Below, in pieces: positions 4,005 to 64,000 of a DNA stretch of 64,000 nt. Each line of letters starts with the position of its first letter. Positions within the stretch are counted from its first letter, which is position 1. Source of the stretch: Clostridia bacterium (GTDB lineage Bacteria; Bacillota; Clostridia; Christensenellales; CAG-138); contig JAFSPW010000110.1 of the NCBI GenBank assembly GCA_017451295.1, positions 40,213-104,212 of the forward strand, read 5' to 3'. Made by a program: the position numbers and the translations under genes. The notes under the pieces are model-generated. The model made no database searches. It saw only the letters and a program-made list of their open reading frames with translations, and was not told the origin of the DNA.

Positions 4005-5288
4005 CTATGGAACGGGAGTGGGCCGAGGGGTGCTGGTGGGCGCCGGAGTAGCCGAGGCTGGGGCTTGCGGTTCGCTGGTGGGGCTGCTCTGCTCCTCCTC
4101 CTCGCCGTGATACTCAAAGCGCAGACCTCTGGTCAGCTGGATGCTGGGGTCCGCCGCCTGGATGATGGCGGTCTCCCCATCGGAGGAGGGAATGACCACC
4201 TGGATGGGCTGATAGACCCGACCGGTGTTCATGAACACATAGGGAATGCCGCCGTTAAAATAGATGCCCTTCACGGGGATGGACACGCCGCTGGCCATGG
4301 TGTGGATGGTGAAGGTCATGGTCCGGTTCTCCAGCACGGGGAGCACATCGGAATTGACTTCCAGGATATAGAGCACATAGTTGGTGGCGGGGCGCTCGGC
4401 AATGACCCGGCCGGTATAGGCGGAGTCCTGATACTTTACCCTAAGCTCATAGCTATTGCCTACCACCAGCCGATGGGAGTCCGCCGCCCGGACGGTAAAG
4501 GCCACATAGAAGCCGTTGGGATCCACCACCCGATAGACACCGGCGGCGTTATAGGACAGGGACACCGGGGAGGAGACCACCCGGCTAATCTGGGTGGCGG
4601 TGAGAGAATCCACGCTCATGGCGTTCTCGTAGCCGTCCAGATGGAAGCTGATATAGCCGGAACCGGCGTTGTTTACCAGGGCGCTCTCGGCGGTGAAGTT
4701 GCTGTGCATGATGTCCAGCTGCTGATAGCTGGCCGTCAGGGAGGCATCGGAGGGGACGATTTGCCGCATCAGGTTCTGCCGGGCAGTGAGCAGGTCGTTG
4801 AGCTGCTCGGCAAGAGCAATATAGTCGAGGCCCTCCTTACCGGCGGAAGCCCGGGTCATCTGCTCCACCACCTGCTGAATCTGCTGGTTATACTGCAGCA
4901 CCTCGTCAGGAAGGGTCATGCCGTCGGCGGAGCTGAGGCGAAGCAGGGTTTGCTGCTGCTGGTAAATCTGCTGCTCCTTGCTGATGATGTCCGCCATCTG
5001 GTTATCAAAGCCCTTTTTATAGAGCATGGCCACGGTGTCCCCGTCGGAAACGGTAGCTCCCTCCCCTACCAGGAAGCGGATGCTGTGGTAGTCGTCGGTG
5101 GAGGCCACGTTCTCCCGACGCAGAATGACGCCGGTGAACTCTATATCCCCCTCCACGGTGTCGCTGCCCAGGCGGCCGGTAGCCGGGTTCAAAATGCGGT
5201 AGCCGACATAGACCCCCAGCAGAAGCACGGGGACAAGCAGAAACAGATAGAACTTCAGTTTGAATTTACGCGTCCTCTTGGCCGACAA
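4005..5288 (-). CDS. HlyD-like membrane-fusion/adaptor family protein (single N-terminal TM, Pro/Thr-rich C-terminal tail)
   Basis: 427 aa. N-terminal KFKLKFYLFLLVPVLLLGVYVGY anchor, central coiled-coil-like Q-rich segment (EQQIYQQQQTLL, QQIQQVVEQ) flanked by beta-rich regions. Assignment is by architecture only. Confidence 0.35.
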   Translation of the reverse strand: MSAKRTRKFKLKFYLFLLVPVLLLGVYVGYRILNPATGRLGSDTVEGDIEFTGVILRRENVASTDDYHSIRFLVGEGATVSDGDTVAMLYKKGFDNQMADIISKEQQIYQQQQTLLRLSSADGMTLPDEVLQYNQQIQQVVEQMTRASAGKEGLDYIALAEQLNDLLTARQNLMRQIVPSDASLTASYQQLDIMHSNFTAESALVNNAGSGYISFHLDGYENAMSVDSLTATQISRVVSSPVSLSYNAAGVYRVVDPNGFYVAFTVRAADSHRLVVGNSYELRVKYQDSAYTGRVIAERPATNYVLYILEVNSDVLPVLENRTMTFTIHTMASGVSIPVKGIYFNGGIPYVFMNTGRVYQPIQVVIPSSDGETAIIQAADPSIQLTRGLRFEYHGEEEEQSSPTSEPQAPASATPAPTSTPRPTPVP

Positions 5289-5646
5289 CTTCCTTCACCT
5301 CGTAGCCCTGTTTTTGGGAGCGACCGTACTGCCGGTCGAAGTTTTCCTTGTTCTTGGCGATGTATCCATCATAGAGCGCCTGGCCGTCCATGCCGCTGCG
5401 GATGCACATGCTGACAAAGAAATGGAGCACATCCACCAGCTCCTCCTGGATGGCGGCCTGGTTCTGGGGCTTCTTGTTCTTCCACCATTTATACTGGACC
5501 TCGTTGAGGACCTCCATAATCTCCTCAATGCAGGCCAGGGCGTCCTTCTGCATCCATTCCTCGTAGGAATAGGAAAGGTTCCGCCGGGTCATAATGTCCT
5601 CGTCCAGGCTCTTTTGCAGATTAAAAATCACGTCGAGGCGATCCAT
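5266..5646 (-). CDS. Dimeric all-alpha dUTPase-like protein
   Basis: MDRLDVIFNLQKSLDEDI...EEIMEVLNEVQYKWWKNKKP...ELVDVLHFFVS resembles the dimeric dUTPase/MazG-like family. Start moved to ATG 5646 (AAGGAGAT RBS), 2 nt after the M16 peptidase stop. Confidence 0.55.
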   Translation of the reverse strand: MDRLDVIFNLQKSLDEDIMTRRNLSYSYEEWMQKDALACIEEIMEVLNEVQYKWWKNKKPQNQAAIQEELVDVLHFFVSMCIRSGMDGQALYDGYIAKNKENFDRQYGRSQKQGYEVKEVVGQEDA

Positions 5647-7022: not shown

Positions 7023-9125
7023 TTAGTCGTTCTTCTCGTCCTCGGGAAGCAGGCCCTTGCGATCGAGGCTGATCTTGCCCGTCTTGGGATCGATTTCGAT
7101 GACCCGAACCAGGACCTTGTCGCCCAGATTCATCACATCCTCCACCTTGTTGACCCGCTTCTTGTCCATGCGAGAGATGTGGAGCAGACCGTCCTTGCCG
7201 GGGGTCAGGTTGATGAAGGCGCCGAAGGACTGGATGTTCACCACGGTGCCGAGGTACACCTCGCCCACCTCGATTTCCTTGACGATGCTGTCGATGATAG
7301 CCTTGGCAGCCTGGGCAGCGGACTCGTCGGGAGAGGCGATGGACACGGTGCCGTCGTCGTCGATGTCGATCTTCACGCCGGTCTGGGCAATGATGCCGTT
7401 GATGGTCTTGCCGCCGGAGCCGATGACGTCACGAATCTTATCGGGATCGATCTTGAAGCTGATGATGCGGGGCGCATAGGGGGACAGCTCCGTCCGGGGC
7501 TTGTCCAGGCACTCGCACATCTTGTCCAGGATGAATAGACGCCCGCGGCGAGCCTGAGCCAGGGCGCGGGTGAGAATCTCCTCATCGATGCCCTTAATCT
7601 TGATGTCCATCTGGATGGCAGTGATGCCGTCCCGGGTACCGGCCACCTTAAAGTCCATATCGCCCAGGAAGTCTTCGAGGCCCTGGATGTCGGTAAGCAC
7701 GGCGATGTTGCCCGTATCCACGTCCTTGATAAGGCCCATGGCCACACCGGCTACCATCTTCTTGATGGGAACGCCGGCGTCCATCAGGGCCAGGGTGCTG
7801 GCGCAGATGCTGGCCTGGGAGGTGGAACCGTTGCTGGAGATAACCTCGCTGACCAGCCGCATGCAGTAGGGGAACTCCTCCTCGCTGGGGAGCACGGGCA
7901 GCAACGCACGCTCTGCCAGGGCGCCATGGCCGATTTCACGACGGCCTGGGCTGCGGACGGGGCGGGTTTCGCCGGTGCTGTAGGGCGGCATGTTGTACTG
8001 GTGCATATAGCGCTTGGAATCCTCCAGGCCGATGCCGTCCAGAATCTGGGCTTCGGCGATGGTGCCCAGGGTGGCGATGGTCATAACCTGGGTTTGTCCC
8101 CGGGTGAACACGGCGCTGCCATGGGTCCTTTCCAGAATGCCGGCTTCGCACCAGATGGGACGAATCTCCTCCTGGCCACGGCCATCGGGACGAATCTTCT
8201 TGTTGATAATCTTGTCACGCATGACCTCTTTGGTCATGTTGTACAGAATGGCATCGATGTCCTTGCCCTCTTCGGGATGGGCCTCGTCGAAGGCGGCATG
8301 GGTTTCGGCCTTCACCTGCTCAGTACGCACTTCCCGCTCGTGGCGATCGAAGGTGTCCATCTGCCAGACCACCTTGTCCATGGCAAAGGCGCGGACAGCG
8401 GCTTCCAGCTCGGCATCGGGCTTATGGATGTTGACCTCCATCTTGGGCTTGCCAACCTCAGCCTGGATGTCGCTGATGAAGGCACAAATCTTCTTGATTT
8501 CCTCATGTGCAAAGAGGATAGCACCCAGCATCTCCTCCTCGGTGAGCTCCTGAGCACCGGCTTCCACCATCATGACGGCGTCCTTGGTGCCGGACACGGT
8601 CAAATTGAGGGTGCTCTTTTCCCTATCCTCCACGCCGGGGTTAAGGATGTACTTGCCGTCCACATAGCCCACAGCCACGGAACCCGTGGGGCCCATGAAG
8701 GGAGCTTCGGAGATGGACAGGGCGATGGAGGAACCCAGCATGGCCACCACATCGGGGGGCACATCCTGGTCCACGGACAGCACGGTGGCGATGACCTGCA
8801 CGTCGTTATAGAAGCCCTTGGGGAACAGGGGCCGCAGGGGACGGTCAATCAGACGGTCGGTCAAAATGGCCTTCTCGGAAGGACGGCCTTCGCGCTTGAT
8901 GAAGCCGCCGGGAATCTTGCCCACGGAGTAGAGCTTCTCCTCAAACTCCACAGACAGCGGCAGAAAGTCCACGCCATCCCGGGGAGCTTTGGCAACGGTG
9001 GCGCACACCAGCACTGCGGTGCCGCCGCAGCGCAGCAGGACGGAACCGCCTGCCTGCTCGGCATACTTGCCGGTTTCGACGACGAGCTTGCGATCGCCGA
9101 TCATGGTTTCAAATTGCTTGAACAT
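7023..9125 (-). CDS. pnp: Polyribonucleotide nucleotidyltransferase (PNPase)
   Basis: 700 aa with two RNase PH domains, a KH domain and an S1 domain ([20 protein letters not shown]). Sits downstream of rpsO. Confidence 0.97.
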
Positions 9126-9243: not shown

Positions 9244-9498
9244 TTACTTTCTGAGGTTCAGAGCTGCCAGGATGGCACGATACCGCTCGATGTCCTTCTC
9301 CTTGAGATAGTTGAGAAGGCCACGGCGCTGGCCGACCATCTTGAGCAGGCCGCGACGGCTGTGATGGTCGTTCTTGTTGTTGGCAAGGTGCTCGTTGAGG
9401 TGGTTGATGCGGTCGGTGAGCAGCGCAATCTGCACCTCGGGGGAGCCGGTGTCACCCTCGTGAAGGGCGTACTTGGTGATGATTTCCTGTTTGGTCAT
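9244..9498 (-). CDS. rpsO: 30S ribosomal protein S15
   Basis: [38 protein letters not shown]...HHSRRGLL is canonical uS15. Start moved to ATG 9498. Confidence 0.95.
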
Positions 9499-62013: not shown

Positions 62014-62397
62014 TTATGCTTCTGCGGGTGCCTTGGGGTCGGGACCATAGGCATTAGCGCCCTGCTCACCGGCGCGGCAGTACCACACCAGTATGAAAAT
62101 CCAGCCCACCAGGGGAATGAGCCAGAAGAACCAATAGCCGCCGGACTTGCCAATGTCGTGCAGCCGCCGCCAAGCCACGGCCAGACCCGGAATCAGCGTC
62201 GCCAGAGAATAGAGACCGGCCAAGCTGTCCAGCAGGGTAGACATAGCGCCCTGACCGGCCGCCCTTCCCAGAATACCCAGGGCAGCGCTGACAAGGAAGT
62301 TGAACAGGAAGAAATACCAATACTCGCTGCGCCGGGCACGGCCGCTGAAATTGGCATAGTTCTGGAAACAATTCTTGACTGCGTCCATCATAGTCAT
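62014..62397 (-). CDS. DUF805 (YhaH/YhaI-like) inner-membrane protein
   Basis: NYANFSGRARRSEYWYFFLFNFLV and AVAWRRLHDIGKSGGYWF are DUF805 hallmarks. Start moved to ATG 62397 after AAGGAGAGG. Confidence 0.75.
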   Translation of the reverse strand: MTMMDAVKNCFQNYANFSGRARRSEYWYFFLFNFLVSAALGILGRAAGQGAMSTLLDSLAGLYSLATLIPGLAVAWRRLHDIGKSGGYWFFWLIPLVGWIFILVWYCRAGEQGANAYGPDPKAPAEA

Positions 62398-62613
62398 ACA
62401 ATCATACCTCTCCTTTTCTGCGTTGGGTTCCTTTTGAACCGTGAGATTAGTATACGCCACGAATCGGCATTTTGCAACCACTATATAGCATTCACGGAAT
62501 ATGCCGCTGTTGAAAGTTGGAAGGCGGTATGGTACTATAGATGCACTGCAAAAAAGGATGGGGTGTCTATCTTCATAGAGACTGTTATCAGTCTTGAATT
62601 GTCAAGTCAAGTG

Positions 62614-62650
62614 CAAAAAAACAGGAGAGAAGGAACCCCTTCTCTCCTGT
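62614..62650 (-). terminator. Intrinsic terminator (probably the ancestral rubrerythrin terminator)
   Basis: ACAGGAGAGAAGG-aacc-CCTTCTCTCCTGT with a 7-nt T-tract on the minus strand. Lies 14 nt beyond the rubrerythrin 3' remnant. Confidence 0.65.
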
Positions 62651-62663
62651 TCGTTCATAGGAT

Positions 62664-62714
62664 TTAGCCGAAGTACCGCCTGAGGAAACCTGCAAAGGTC
62701 TTGCCGTGGCGGGT
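62664..62714 (-). pseudogene. Duplicated 3' end of the rubrerythrin gene (remnant)
   Basis: The minus strand reads ...RHGKTFAGFLRRYFG-stop versus ...RHGKAFAGLLKRYFGE-stop at the end of the intact gene (63332-63385). About 50 nt aligned with about 5 mismatches and one 3-nt indel. Confidence 0.6.
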
Positions 62715-62740
62715 GACTGTTGGCAATAACCTGGCGGCGT

Positions 62741-63025
62741 CTAAACCCGGCCGCAGGCATCGGCGCCCGTCGGGCCGGTCACGCTGTCCTCATACAGCCA
62801 TTGGGGATCGATATCGATATCATCCGGCCATGTCACGCAGCCATTCTGAACGAAAACCTGCGCCCGAAACGCCGAATCCTTCAGGCGCATATAGCACTTT
62901 CGTTCCAGCAGGGGGGTCAGGTCAAAGAAACGCTCCTCCCCATTGGAAAAGTGAACGGCCAGCGAATACTCATCGCAGAGTGAAACATCGACTGCATCAG
63001 GCGGCAGCATTCGCACTTTTGTCAC
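62741..63025 (-). CDS. DUF2442 family protein
   Basis: Small protein (VDVSLCDEYSLAVHFSNGEERFFDLTPLL...VTWPDDIDIDPQWLY) matching the DUF2442 pattern. Always paired with DUF4160 in my experience. Start ambiguous: GTG 63025, GTG 63016 or ATG 63010. Confidence 0.6.
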   Translation of the reverse strand: MTKVRMLPPDAVDVSLCDEYSLAVHFSNGEERFFDLTPLLERKCYMRLKDSAFRAQVFVQNGCVTWPDDIDIDPQWLYEDSVTGPTGADACGRV

Positions 63026-63026
63026 C

Positions 63027-63293
63027 TCACTTGAGGGGCTCAATCTTGTAAGGCATTTCATCCTGCATGGCCAGCTCCCAGTTTGCCCGGAGCTCGTCCT
63101 GATGAATCAGTGTCCATGCCTTCACAATCGATGCCTGCTTAGACGGCAAAGAGCCGGCGATGATTTCCCCATCGAAATCCACCTCTGCTTTGCTGTCGCC
63201 GTACCGCGCATGAAAGTGAGGCGTGTGATGCTGTCCGGTCTTTTCCCAGTACATGGAAATGATTATTCCGTAAAACATCGAGATCGTCGGCAC
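63027..63293 (-). CDS. DUF4160 family protein
   Basis: PTISMFYGIIISMYWEKTGQHHTPHFHARYGDSKAEVDFDGEIIAGSLPSKQ is the DUF4160 signature. GTG 63293 lies 9 nt after AAAGGAGG. Confidence 0.7.
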   Translation of the reverse strand: MPTISMFYGIIISMYWEKTGQHHTPHFHARYGDSKAEVDFDGEIIAGSLPSKQASIVKAWTLIHQDELRANWELAMQDEMPYKIEPLK

Positions 63294-63331
63294 GCTACAC
63301 GCCTCCTTTCATTTGTTAAGTGCTGCAGAAA

Positions 63332-63877
63332 TTACTCCCCGAAGTACCGCTTGAGGAGACCTGCAAAGGCCTTGCCATGGCGGGCTTCGTCACGACCGAT
63401 TTCGTGGACGGCGTCATGGATGGCATCGAGGTTGAGGGCCTTAGCGCGCTTAGCTAAGTCTGCCCGGCCCTGGGTGGCGCCGTATTCGGCCTCGGCCCTT
63501 AGCTCCAGATTCTTCTTGGTGGAGTCGGTGAGGCACTCGCCCAAAAGCTCGGCAAACTGGGCGGCGTGGACGGCCTCTTCCATGGCGGCCTTTTCAAAGA
63601 AAGCGCCGATTTCGGGATAGCCCTCCCGGATGGCCACCCGGCTCATGGCCAGGTACATGCCCACCTCGGAGCACTCGCCGTTGAACATGCTGCGAAGACC
63701 TTCGATGATGTCTTCCGGTGCGCCCTGCGCCACGCCCAGCACATGCTCGGCGGCCCAGACCTTGTCTTCCTTCTGCTCGATGAACTTGGATGCGGGGGCC
63801 TTGCAGACCGGGCACTTCTCCGGTGCGGCATCTCCTTCATAGATATACCCACAGACGCTGCATACAAACTTTGCCAT
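63332..63877 (-). CDS. Reverse rubrerythrin (N-terminal rubredoxin domain + C-terminal ferritin-like diiron domain)
   Basis: CSVCGYIY...CPVCKAP rubredoxin centre at the N-terminus. ExxH diiron motifs (EEAVHAAQF, DEARHGKAF) lie in the four-helix bundle. Confidence 0.85.
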   Translation of the reverse strand: MAKFVCSVCGYIYEGDAAPEKCPVCKAPASKFIEQKEDKVWAAEHVLGVAQGAPEDIIEGLRSMFNGECSEVGMYLAMSRVAIREGYPEIGAFFEKAAMEEAVHAAQFAELLGECLTDSTKKNLELRAEAEYGATQGRADLAKRAKALNLDAIHDAVHEIGRDEARHGKAFAGLLKRYFGE

Positions 63878-64000
63878 GATACATTCCTCCGATTTTTAGA
63901 ATAGGGGTTTTTGCAGACCGCTTGCCTGCGACTACATTTTACTTGGACAGGCCGCCCCTTGTCAACAGAAAGAAACAGTTTTTTCCTATTCGGCGGGGGA

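Follow-up and report, generated by a model that had tools for sequence, protein, structure and literature searches.

Cis-mobilizable elements (CIMEs) and tandem accretion have been described for the integrative and conjugative elements ICESt1/ICESt3 at the fda gene of Streptococcus thermophilus, and for integrative and mobilizable elements (IMEs) at tRNA-Lys genes (Pavlovic 2004, Bellanger 2011, summarised in PMC5704250). A cassette that resembles CIMEs is found behind the reverse rubrerythrin gene (rbr) in a 64,000-nt stretch of DNA from a Clostridia bacterium (JAFSPW010000110.1, assembly GCA_017451295.1). The whole stretch is termed the window, and coordinates are window positions. The cassette holds a DUF4160 and a DUF2442 gene, a putative toxin-antitoxin pair, between two copies of the rbr 3' end. 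As in CIMEs, there is no integrase, the attL/attR-type repeats come from the 3' end of a protein gene, and the target appears to be restored by a copy carried on the element. Integrase-bearing elements are present at the same site in related genomes, and stacks consistent with successive insertions are found. The rbr cassettes differ, however, in that they are far smaller (0.24-1.4 kb, with one or two open reading frames, ORFs), usually promoterless, co-oriented and fused to the target transcript. They also display no sequence relation to the autonomous elements at the site, a relation by which derivation by deletion is recognized, and the window cassette has its boundary at -53 rather than at -69 or -80 (positions counted from the end of the rbr stop codon).

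Three further systems bear comparison. Integron cassette arrays, of which the integrase-less ones are reportedly termed CALINs (clusters of attC sites lacking integron integrases), likewise consist of compact, mostly promoterless, co-oriented cassettes behind one promoter, each ending in a copy of the recombination site; the cargo includes toxin-antitoxin pairs, and no recombinase lies beside the array. In contrast, the rbr site is a double-stranded coding gene end and not a folded attC, neither IntI nor attI is found at the rbr locus, and an insertion must keep the host reading frame. Tandem islands and their remnants are also said to occur at the 3' ends of tRNA and tmRNA genes, where, as here, repeated fragments of the target 3' end border successive inserts and the outermost fragment is the original. 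rbr, however, is a protein-coding oxidative-stress gene, and its inserts are miniature and become operon members. The pdif modules of Acinetobacter plasmids are small recombinase-less cassettes, often of toxin-antitoxin type, bounded by XerC/XerD dif-like sites. The rbr cassettes are likewise small, without a recombinase and bounded by short site copies that would serve a recombinase encoded elsewhere, but the rbr core has no dif-like sequence and is situated inside a chromosomal gene.

We regard the window locus, with a confidence that is evenly poised, as a non-autonomous, att-flanked, CIME-like cassette that is now fixed, is kept by toxin-antitoxin addiction and is co-transcribed with rbr.

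The duplicated rubrerythrin gene end

The locus comprises the following features, in the direction of rbr transcription.

63936-63965, minus strand: rbr promoter, sigma-70-like, TTGACA-18-TAAAAT, 11/12 consensus matches
63332-63877, minus strand: reverse rubrerythrin gene rbr, 181 amino acids, intact (Pfam RUBY_RBDX and Rubrerythrin)
63339-63384, minus strand: repeat copy 1, attL-like, the live 3' end of rbr (repeat search, copy alignment)
63369-63376: candidate crossover block GGCAAGGC within copy 1 (copy alignment)
63332-63338, minus strand: last rbr codons and stop, GGAGTAA, putatively supplied by the cassette (...G-E-stop, native ...G-stop; sequence, copy alignment)
63294-63331, minus strand: 38-nt spacer, homologous to the spacers of loci L188 and L182 (sequence)
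63302-63309, minus strand: ribosome-binding site AAAGGAGG ahead of DUF4160 (sequence)
63027-63293, minus strand: DUF4160 gene, putative DhiT-type toxin, 88 amino acids, GTG start (PF13711)
62741-63016, minus strand: DUF2442 gene, putative DhiA-type antitoxin, 91 amino acids (PF10387)
62714-62740, minus strand: cassette tail of 27 nt, from the DUF2442 stop to the displaced rbr end (sequence)
62664-62713, minus strand: repeat copy 2, attR-like and decaying; native end of rbr, displaced, with a stop of its own, CTAA (repeat search)
62613-62651, minus strand: native intrinsic rbr terminator, homologous to the terminator behind rbr in relatives (sequence, fold)
62014-62397, minus strand: DUF805 gene, native downstream neighbor (Pfam; same synteny in genome G014)

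A first-pass annotation of this DNA had proposed that the 3' end of rbr recurs downstream of the gene. A direct-repeat search confirms this as a 46-nt repeat, 62668-62713 versus 63339-63384, with a period of 671 nt and 42/46 identical positions. The mismatches that had been reported are real but are four in number and not about five (T/C, G/A, C/T, A/G), and the reported 3-nt indel does not lie within the repeat. Chance similarity, which had been named as a concern for 62664-62714, is ruled out, as the best 46-nt window in 100 shuffles of the 2-kb region reaches at most 29/46 (mean 26.5). The copies part ways after ...CTTCGG, where the live gene continues with GGAGTAA and the displaced copy with CTAA; the protein, natively ending ...RYFG-stop, now ends ...RYFGE-stop. 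Similarity to rbr breaks off sharply at -53, with no trace farther upstream.

The repeat brackets 625 bp that hold the DUF4160 and DUF2442 genes only. Pfam and the ORF list agree with the annotation on this point and on their co-orientation with rbr. From rbr to copy 2, the ORF list and a consensus scan give no further noteworthy ORF and no promoter-like or terminator-like site. The strong terminator predicted beyond the second copy displays a perfect 14-bp stem (62620-62651) followed by a T-run, with a fold z-score of -6.9. The GC content of the cassette is 54.1%, compared with 58.2% for the genome. Upstream of rbr are genes for a DinB-type polymerase, a flavodoxin-like protein and two unknown proteins.

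Other origins of such repeats were considered and rejected. A diversity-generating retroelement is not indicated, as there is no reverse transcriptase ORF and the repeat mismatches are not adenine-specific. A transposon target-site duplication does not fit a duplicated length that is not fixed but ranges from ~40 to 209 nt among cassettes. An attC-like folded site was also rejected, since the 46-mer copies, on either strand, fold no better than shuffles (z -0.59, -0.65, -1.42).

Empty sites are found in relatives. The genus comprises 17 genomes, with rbr ~77% identical in protein, and in seven of its species (L002, L003, L004, L006, L009, L028, L029) a homologue of the 62614-62650 terminator comes immediately after rbr, the arrangement for which the annotation had suggested a search. 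The hairpin, of the type GAGAGRRAGG...CCYYTCTCTC, lies within ~25 nt of the rbr stop in these seven species. In G014, the same terminator and DUF805 follow the last copy of the rbr end. The ancestral order is thus reconstructed, by comparison of sequences, as rbr, terminator and DUF805. Both the rbr-terminator junction of the relatives and the DUF805 synteny of G014 point to this order, and the 671 bp are an insertion. A relative with a duplicated end but no insert was also looked for, and none was found.

Absence of any insertion, with copy 2 as what is left of a tandem paralogue of rbr after decay, or with the pair ancestral and lost in relatives, is very improbable. Full-length tandem rbr paralogues do exist, in L137 and L142, and in L179/L181 the pair follows rbr with no duplicate. 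The two copies, however, were 45/46 identical in a recent ancestor and have species-specific synonymous variants in common, unlike what is expected of an old paralogue. A paralogue stub is rejected on this identity and on the abrupt boundary at -53, and the seven genus members with an empty site and a homologous terminator argue against an ancestral pair.

The recent ancestry is visible in L057, a 97.8% identical strain whose own two copies differ at 1/46 positions. The repeat was thus almost perfect at first, and the three amino-acid-changing differences in copy 2 of the window, which are specific to the window strain, arose through later decay in sequence that is no longer translated. Between the window and L057, rbr has 13 nucleotide changes, DUF4160 two and DUF2442 three, with no amino acid change in any of them. 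By this comparison all three genes are under purifying selection and the displaced copy is not. To judge from the copies, the donor's rbr end must have differed only slightly from the native end.

The cassette is present in 16/16 same-species contigs. Every metagenome contig that encodes the exact rbr, DUF4160 or DUF805 protein holds it, and no same-species empty site occurs among these contigs. The predicted empty-site junction is unmatched in JGI metagenomes, where the 46-mer control is unmatched too, the species being simply absent there.

It is proposed that the cassette entered rbr by recombination at a core ...CACGGCAAGGC..., ~40-45 nt before the stop codon. It would have brought its own last codons of rbr (copy 1 and GGAGTAA), so that the gene stayed intact, as with islands. 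The native gene end (copy 2) and the terminator would thereby have been displaced 671 nt downstream.

The rbr protein of the window is 83-89% identical to rbr proteins from rumen assemblies (L099-L111, labelled Lachnospiraceae, Oscillospiraceae or Clostridia), compared with only the ~77% within its own genus. DNA identity to all these relatives is 60-90%, so no transfer is demonstrable.

The toxin-antitoxin cargo

The annotation had described DUF4160/DUF2442 pairs as functionally uncharacterised, with a suggested toxin-antitoxin-like role. In fact, such a pair has been characterised as dhiTA in Dickeya dadantii 3937, with the DUF4160 protein acting as toxin and the DUF2442 protein as antitoxin. 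Toxicity and neutralisation were demonstrated in Dickeya and Escherichia coli, and the dhiTA promoter is repressed by the complex (PMC8198452). A pair of this kind makes Thermus thermophilus plasmids more persistent, and a plasmid that lacks the second ORF cannot be introduced (PMC12724237). DUF4160 is also listed as an effector domain in a comparative study (PMC12065111).

The window pair is assigned to the DhiT/DhiA type II toxin-antitoxin family from its profile matches. Both proteins score above the Pfam gathering cut-offs, with 77.6 bits for PF13711 (cut-off 23) and 46.2 bits for PF10387 (cut-off 23.9). The NCBIfam model NF048015, toxin_DhiT, aligns over its full length (protein 1-82 to model 1-83 of 84) at 72.7 bits, below the equivalog cut-off of 100 bits; the DUF4160 protein is therefore classed as a member of the DhiT family and not as an equivalog. 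A sequence search of the Protein Data Bank gives no match for either protein, PADLOC gives none, and Rfam gives sub-threshold noise only.

The gene layout is that of the Dickeya and Thermus modules, with both Pfam families present, the toxin gene first, proteins of ~88 and 91 amino acids, and a gap of a few nucleotides (10 nt here, from the DUF4160 stop to the DUF2442 start). By analogy with these homologues, the window pair is expected to have toxin-antitoxin activity. It differs in having no detected promoter of its own, whereas dhiTA is autoregulated from its own promoter. The rbr promoter is the sole promoter-like site 5' of the cassette, with none between it and DUF4160, although the consensus scan is crude. 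As no promoter-like or terminator-like site separates the rbr promoter from the old terminator, the pair is expected to be co-transcribed with rbr, as the annotation had assumed, and would make up the last part of an rbr transcript that runs on to that terminator.

Recombination between the 46-nt repeats would delete the cassette, and the loss of antitoxin would then penalise the cell. Such an addiction penalty is consistent with the cassette being kept in all strains sampled and with the purifying selection on its two genes.

In plasmid and phage collections, the toxin has only relatives at <60% identity, on 37 plasmids and in five phage records. A second DUF4160/DUF2442-like pair is present in the same genome, on contig C71 (L027, 4489-5017), with a toxin 40% identical to that of the window and with overlapping genes. 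It has no flanking direct repeat, and close homologues of the window toxin occur in unrelated contexts, one of them with a primase and an excisionase (L185). A survey of such loci had been suggested to see whether they are generally flanked by target duplications. They are not, and the duplication is rejected as a general property of DUF4160/DUF2442 pairs.

The finding thus explains the 0.6-kb insert, names its cargo as a known toxin-antitoxin family and predicts expression of the pair under the control of an oxidative-stress gene.

Reuse of the rubrerythrin 3' end

An 86-nt probe from the rbr end matches 108/240 genomes of the family, and in nine of these 108 the contig that bears rbr also has additional partial copies, downstream of the gene. 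As controls, the ends of era and asnA matched 120 and 16 genomes, with no nearby duplicate in either. The chance of all nine cases falling in the rbr group is roughly 0.001. The sequence survey therefore identifies the rbr 3' end as a locus-specific and repeatedly used docking site. In the literature searched, rbr is not named as an integration (att) site. Loci read in the following comprise the cases from the family survey and others fetched by means of rbr protein and DUF4160 homologues.

Integrases are associated with the site. A tyrosine recombinase of the Phage_integrase family is present in 5/240 family genomes and in all five adjoins a displaced fragment of the rbr end, not the whole gene, at a distance of ~190-260 nt. 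This integrase family is thus specific for the rbr end. The G173 island, of 2.9 kb, carries a WYL regulator and the integrase. That of G103 measures 13 kb and carries methylase-like and helicase-like genes, a WYL-regulator-like gene and the integrase. Integrase-bearing islands are found in G006 and G165 as well, and G198 has a truncated copy of the integrase. A 2.7-kb remnant in G014 is flanked by attL/attR and has lost the integrase but kept the same arm-like repeats beside attR. The case for insertion of the window cassette into the rbr 3' end, as originally proposed, is supported by these integrase-linked rbr ends, together with the empty sites and the same cassette after rbr ends elsewhere.

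In G103 (L088, oriented segment 6322-10498), the genes encode a 637-amino-acid methyltransferase-like and a 756-amino-acid helicase-like protein that by eye resemble restriction-modification-like defence cargo. A 389-amino-acid ORF, by eye like the WYL regulator of G173, lies beside these defence-like genes and the integrase.

The integrase-linked pairs allow the crossover to be placed provisionally. In G173, G014 and G103, the mismatches between attL and attR flank an invariant block, namely GGCAAGGCGCTGAAGGG in G173, CACGGCAAGGCCTTCGCAGG in G014 and ...CACGGCAAGGC in G103. The three blocks intersect in GGCAAGGC, at -45 to -38, and this 8-bp block is the best candidate for the region of strand exchange, assuming no later mutation or conversion. 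The integrase-linked copies begin at -69 (-66 in the shorter frame of G173) or at -80.

Mini-cassettes without a recombinase are found at the rbr end in at least 14 genomes or contigs. They are single or stacked, with up to four copies of the rbr end in G162. The DhiTA pair is the cargo in the window, L182-L184 and L187-L189. Other cargo consists of RelB and ParE (G105), rubredoxin (G125; L085 1817-1972), small Zn-ribbon proteins (G014, at L023 2781-3002; G162, twice; L100, L106 and L182), a NUDIX-like protein (L106), lipoproteins (G003, G110 and L127) and several small unknown proteins. Rubredoxin or four-cysteine Zn-ribbon proteins lie directly behind rbr in at least seven genomes (among them L085, L023, L086, L100, L106 and L182); their recurrence hints at a functional link, as electron donors or partners of rubrerythrin, and not at random cargo.

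The cassettes are compact. About 20 cargo genes are oriented with rbr and three against it; most start 15-40 nt from the rbr stop, after a ribosome-binding site. At all 13 junctions read, the last cargo ORF stops 0-27 nt before the next copy of the rbr end. The order of cassettes differs between G105 and G110. Of 21 left edges of displaced copies bordering mini-cassettes, 16 lie between -57 and -41, that is, at the crossover block, up to 12 nt upstream of it or just inside GGCAAGGC; the window copy, at -53, is in this range, and the other five are at -60, -65, -88, beyond -100 and at -135. For decayed copies the left edges could be placed only approximately, and copies of less than ~35 nt are missed.

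Mismatches between live and displaced copies of mini-cassettes are found only to the right of the block and mostly at third-codon positions. Such a pattern is to be expected if each live end derives from another working rbr gene. The annotation had left open whether the replacement end was brought or regenerated; the mismatch pattern fits an end that was brought better than one that was regenerated, at least in G003, G110, G151 and G162.

The DhiTA cassette is itself found in other hosts. DUF4160 homologues 81-92% identical to that of the window follow the rbr end in three other organisms, with different surrounding genes in each. In L188 the order is rbr, terminator, an HHH-like ORF, a second copy of the rbr end (from -55), the pair, a decayed third copy and a terminator. 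Window and L188 are 76% identical in DNA from -55 of the preceding rbr end through the spacer and both genes, so that "rbr end, spacer, toxin-antitoxin pair" is a conserved unit. In L188 a later insertion has displaced this unit to the second place of the array. In L182 a copy starting at -135 comes immediately after the pair, with a Zn-ribbon cassette and a third copy beyond it. L179/L181 have the pair between rbr and a terminator and display no duplicate.

Several observations count against a site-specific unit. The right junction varies by host, being at -53 in the window, at -135 in L182, at -41 (or -60 with a deletion) in L188 and absent in L179/L181; a unit that moves through a single fixed site should have the same junction throughout. 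Copies resemble one another more within a genome than they resemble those around the same cassette elsewhere, which requires closely related donors or gene conversion. No recent transfer is visible, the nearest cassette being 24% diverged in DNA. The clustering of left edges may in part be a detection effect, given the ~35-nt limit and the fact that CACGGCAAGGC is the best-conserved stretch. The homology of the integrase elements to rbr starts at -69 or -80 and not at the -53 of the cassette. The rbr-end integrases have an N-terminus of the arm-binding type, with arm-like repeats beside attR, and the cassette is too small for arm sites. No rbr-end-family integrase is found in any genome that holds mini-cassettes only, including that of the window, which is 75% complete; the absence of a recombinase at the cassette, noted in the first annotation, is borne out, and no relative of this integrase is found in that genome. 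Finally, no autonomous element was found that has the -53 boundary or has this toxin-antitoxin pair beside attL.

The main rival is insertion driven by homology without a site-specific enzyme, in which the donor DNA already carried the pair behind rbr (as in L179). Either a Campbell-type single crossover of a circularised fragment or homology-facilitated illegitimate recombination in rbr would leave the recipient with a duplicated gene end. A right junction that differs from host to host, and is lacking in L179/L181, is what independent anchor-driven events would produce. The varied junctions and the likeness of copies within each genome, with flanking copies 95-100% identical in several arrays, favour this route. 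It needs no recombinase, matching the absence of one. Delivery of a donor's post-rbr DNA behind rbr would also account for co-orientation, tight spacing and related cargo such as rubredoxin. Homology, however, should act on any conserved gene, and era and asnA have no duplicates, compared with 9/108 for rbr. Left edges fall within 16 nt in 16/21 cases, beside a crossover placed independently from the integrase elements. Cargo ORFs end 0-27 nt from the copy at 13/13 junctions, and the stacks of up to four copies and the different orders in G105 and G110 suggest a site in repeated use. No mosaic signal was detected in rbr, identity being 60-90% throughout in a sliding comparison with 21 relatives, a test of little power. 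On balance, a homology-driven origin is possible but rather doubtful.

The cassette might also be the deletion remnant of a full integrase island that lost all but its addictive pair and never travelled as a small unit. The origin of CIMEs is usually explained in this way (PMC5704250). The 2.7-kb remnant of G014 displays such decay at this very site, and toxin-antitoxin modules are typical island cargo and the part hardest to lose, as in the case of SGI1 (cited in PMC5704250). Such a deletion, however, would need one end flush with the core, with all of the -69 to -53 homology and the arm region gone, and the other end 27 nt past the DUF2442 stop, while tight junctions recur in 13/13 cassettes and in three hosts of this pair. 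Moreover, the cassette has no sequence in common with the elements of G006, G173, G103 and G014 beyond the rbr end. Such an origin is unlikely.

A site-specific origin of the CIME-like cassette is favoured because of the specificity for the locus, the dedicated integrases, the clustering of edges at the candidate crossover, the stacks and changes in order, and the compactness. The recombinase would have come from elsewhere, either as an rbr-end-specific integrase acting in trans or through insertion of the cassette beside an element that encodes one (accretion and cis-mobilisation), and would since have gone from the genome.

A broader proposal can be put forward tentatively. The last ~50 bases of rbr may be the site at which an open-ended platform for gene capture recombines in Clostridia of gut and rumen. 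Species would exchange promoterless mini-cassettes, which would accumulate in stacks downstream of the strong and stress-induced promoter of rbr. The coding mimic of the gene end would be the equivalent of attC and the recombinase would be encoded elsewhere, an analogue of the integron that uses a double-stranded site within a gene. This is a possibility that we consider less likely than the CIME-like origin of the window cassette itself. Reuse of the rbr 3' end as a docking site extends over at least six genera within a single Clostridia family and to additional rumen assemblies, and the site serves both integrase islands, some with restriction-modification-like and WYL genes, and recombinase-less mini-cassettes. 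Should an enzyme act in trans, this would be a compact gene-capture system outside the integron family, with an 8-bp crossover candidate and candidate integrases. Should homology be responsible instead, the locus would be a clean natural record of conserved genes as anchors for the acquisition of foreign genes.

Neighboring elements and other gene ends

The rbr terminator hairpin is preceded by AGGGAYTTTT and is conserved in DNA across two genera (window, L002-L029, L086, L087). In G162 the hairpin is repeated with each copy of the rbr end. Such conservation is unusual for a plain terminator.

Short direct-repeat clusters are present ~60-200 nt past the rbr stop, just after the terminator, in L002, L003, L004, L009, L028 and L029. 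The repeats differ among species (TTGTCCA; GTGTACAT; GGTACTTTT; AGTGYAAAT) and may represent the termini of further elements that entered immediately behind the terminator. In G014 (L023, 7118-8803), a 561-amino-acid ORF that by eye is like a large serine recombinase lies just downstream of DUF805; another element therefore borders the locus.

Duplicated gene ends are also found at a few other places in the genome of the window. On contig C112, the last 34 nt of a 322-amino-acid ORF, stop included, are perfectly repeated 2247 nt downstream (5257-5294 and 7504-7541), and the repeats bracket a gene for 685 amino acids on the opposite strand. On contig C66, 59 nt from the end of a 271-amino-acid ORF recur, at 90%, 2 kb farther downstream (7210-7268 and 9253-9311). 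The interval encodes two double-zinc-ribbon proteins and an XRE-like ORF, and an adjoining pair is by eye RelE/ParE- and RelB-like. On contig C49, two repeats (15605-15636/16261-16292 and 16180-16263/16821-16904), each with its copies ~650 nt apart, consist of the end of a 238-amino-acid ORF, by eye RNA-methyltransferase-like, and a second segment of 84 nt. They bracket ORFs of 157 and 151 amino acids, in an arrangement that resembles a stack of two cassettes at the end of another gene.

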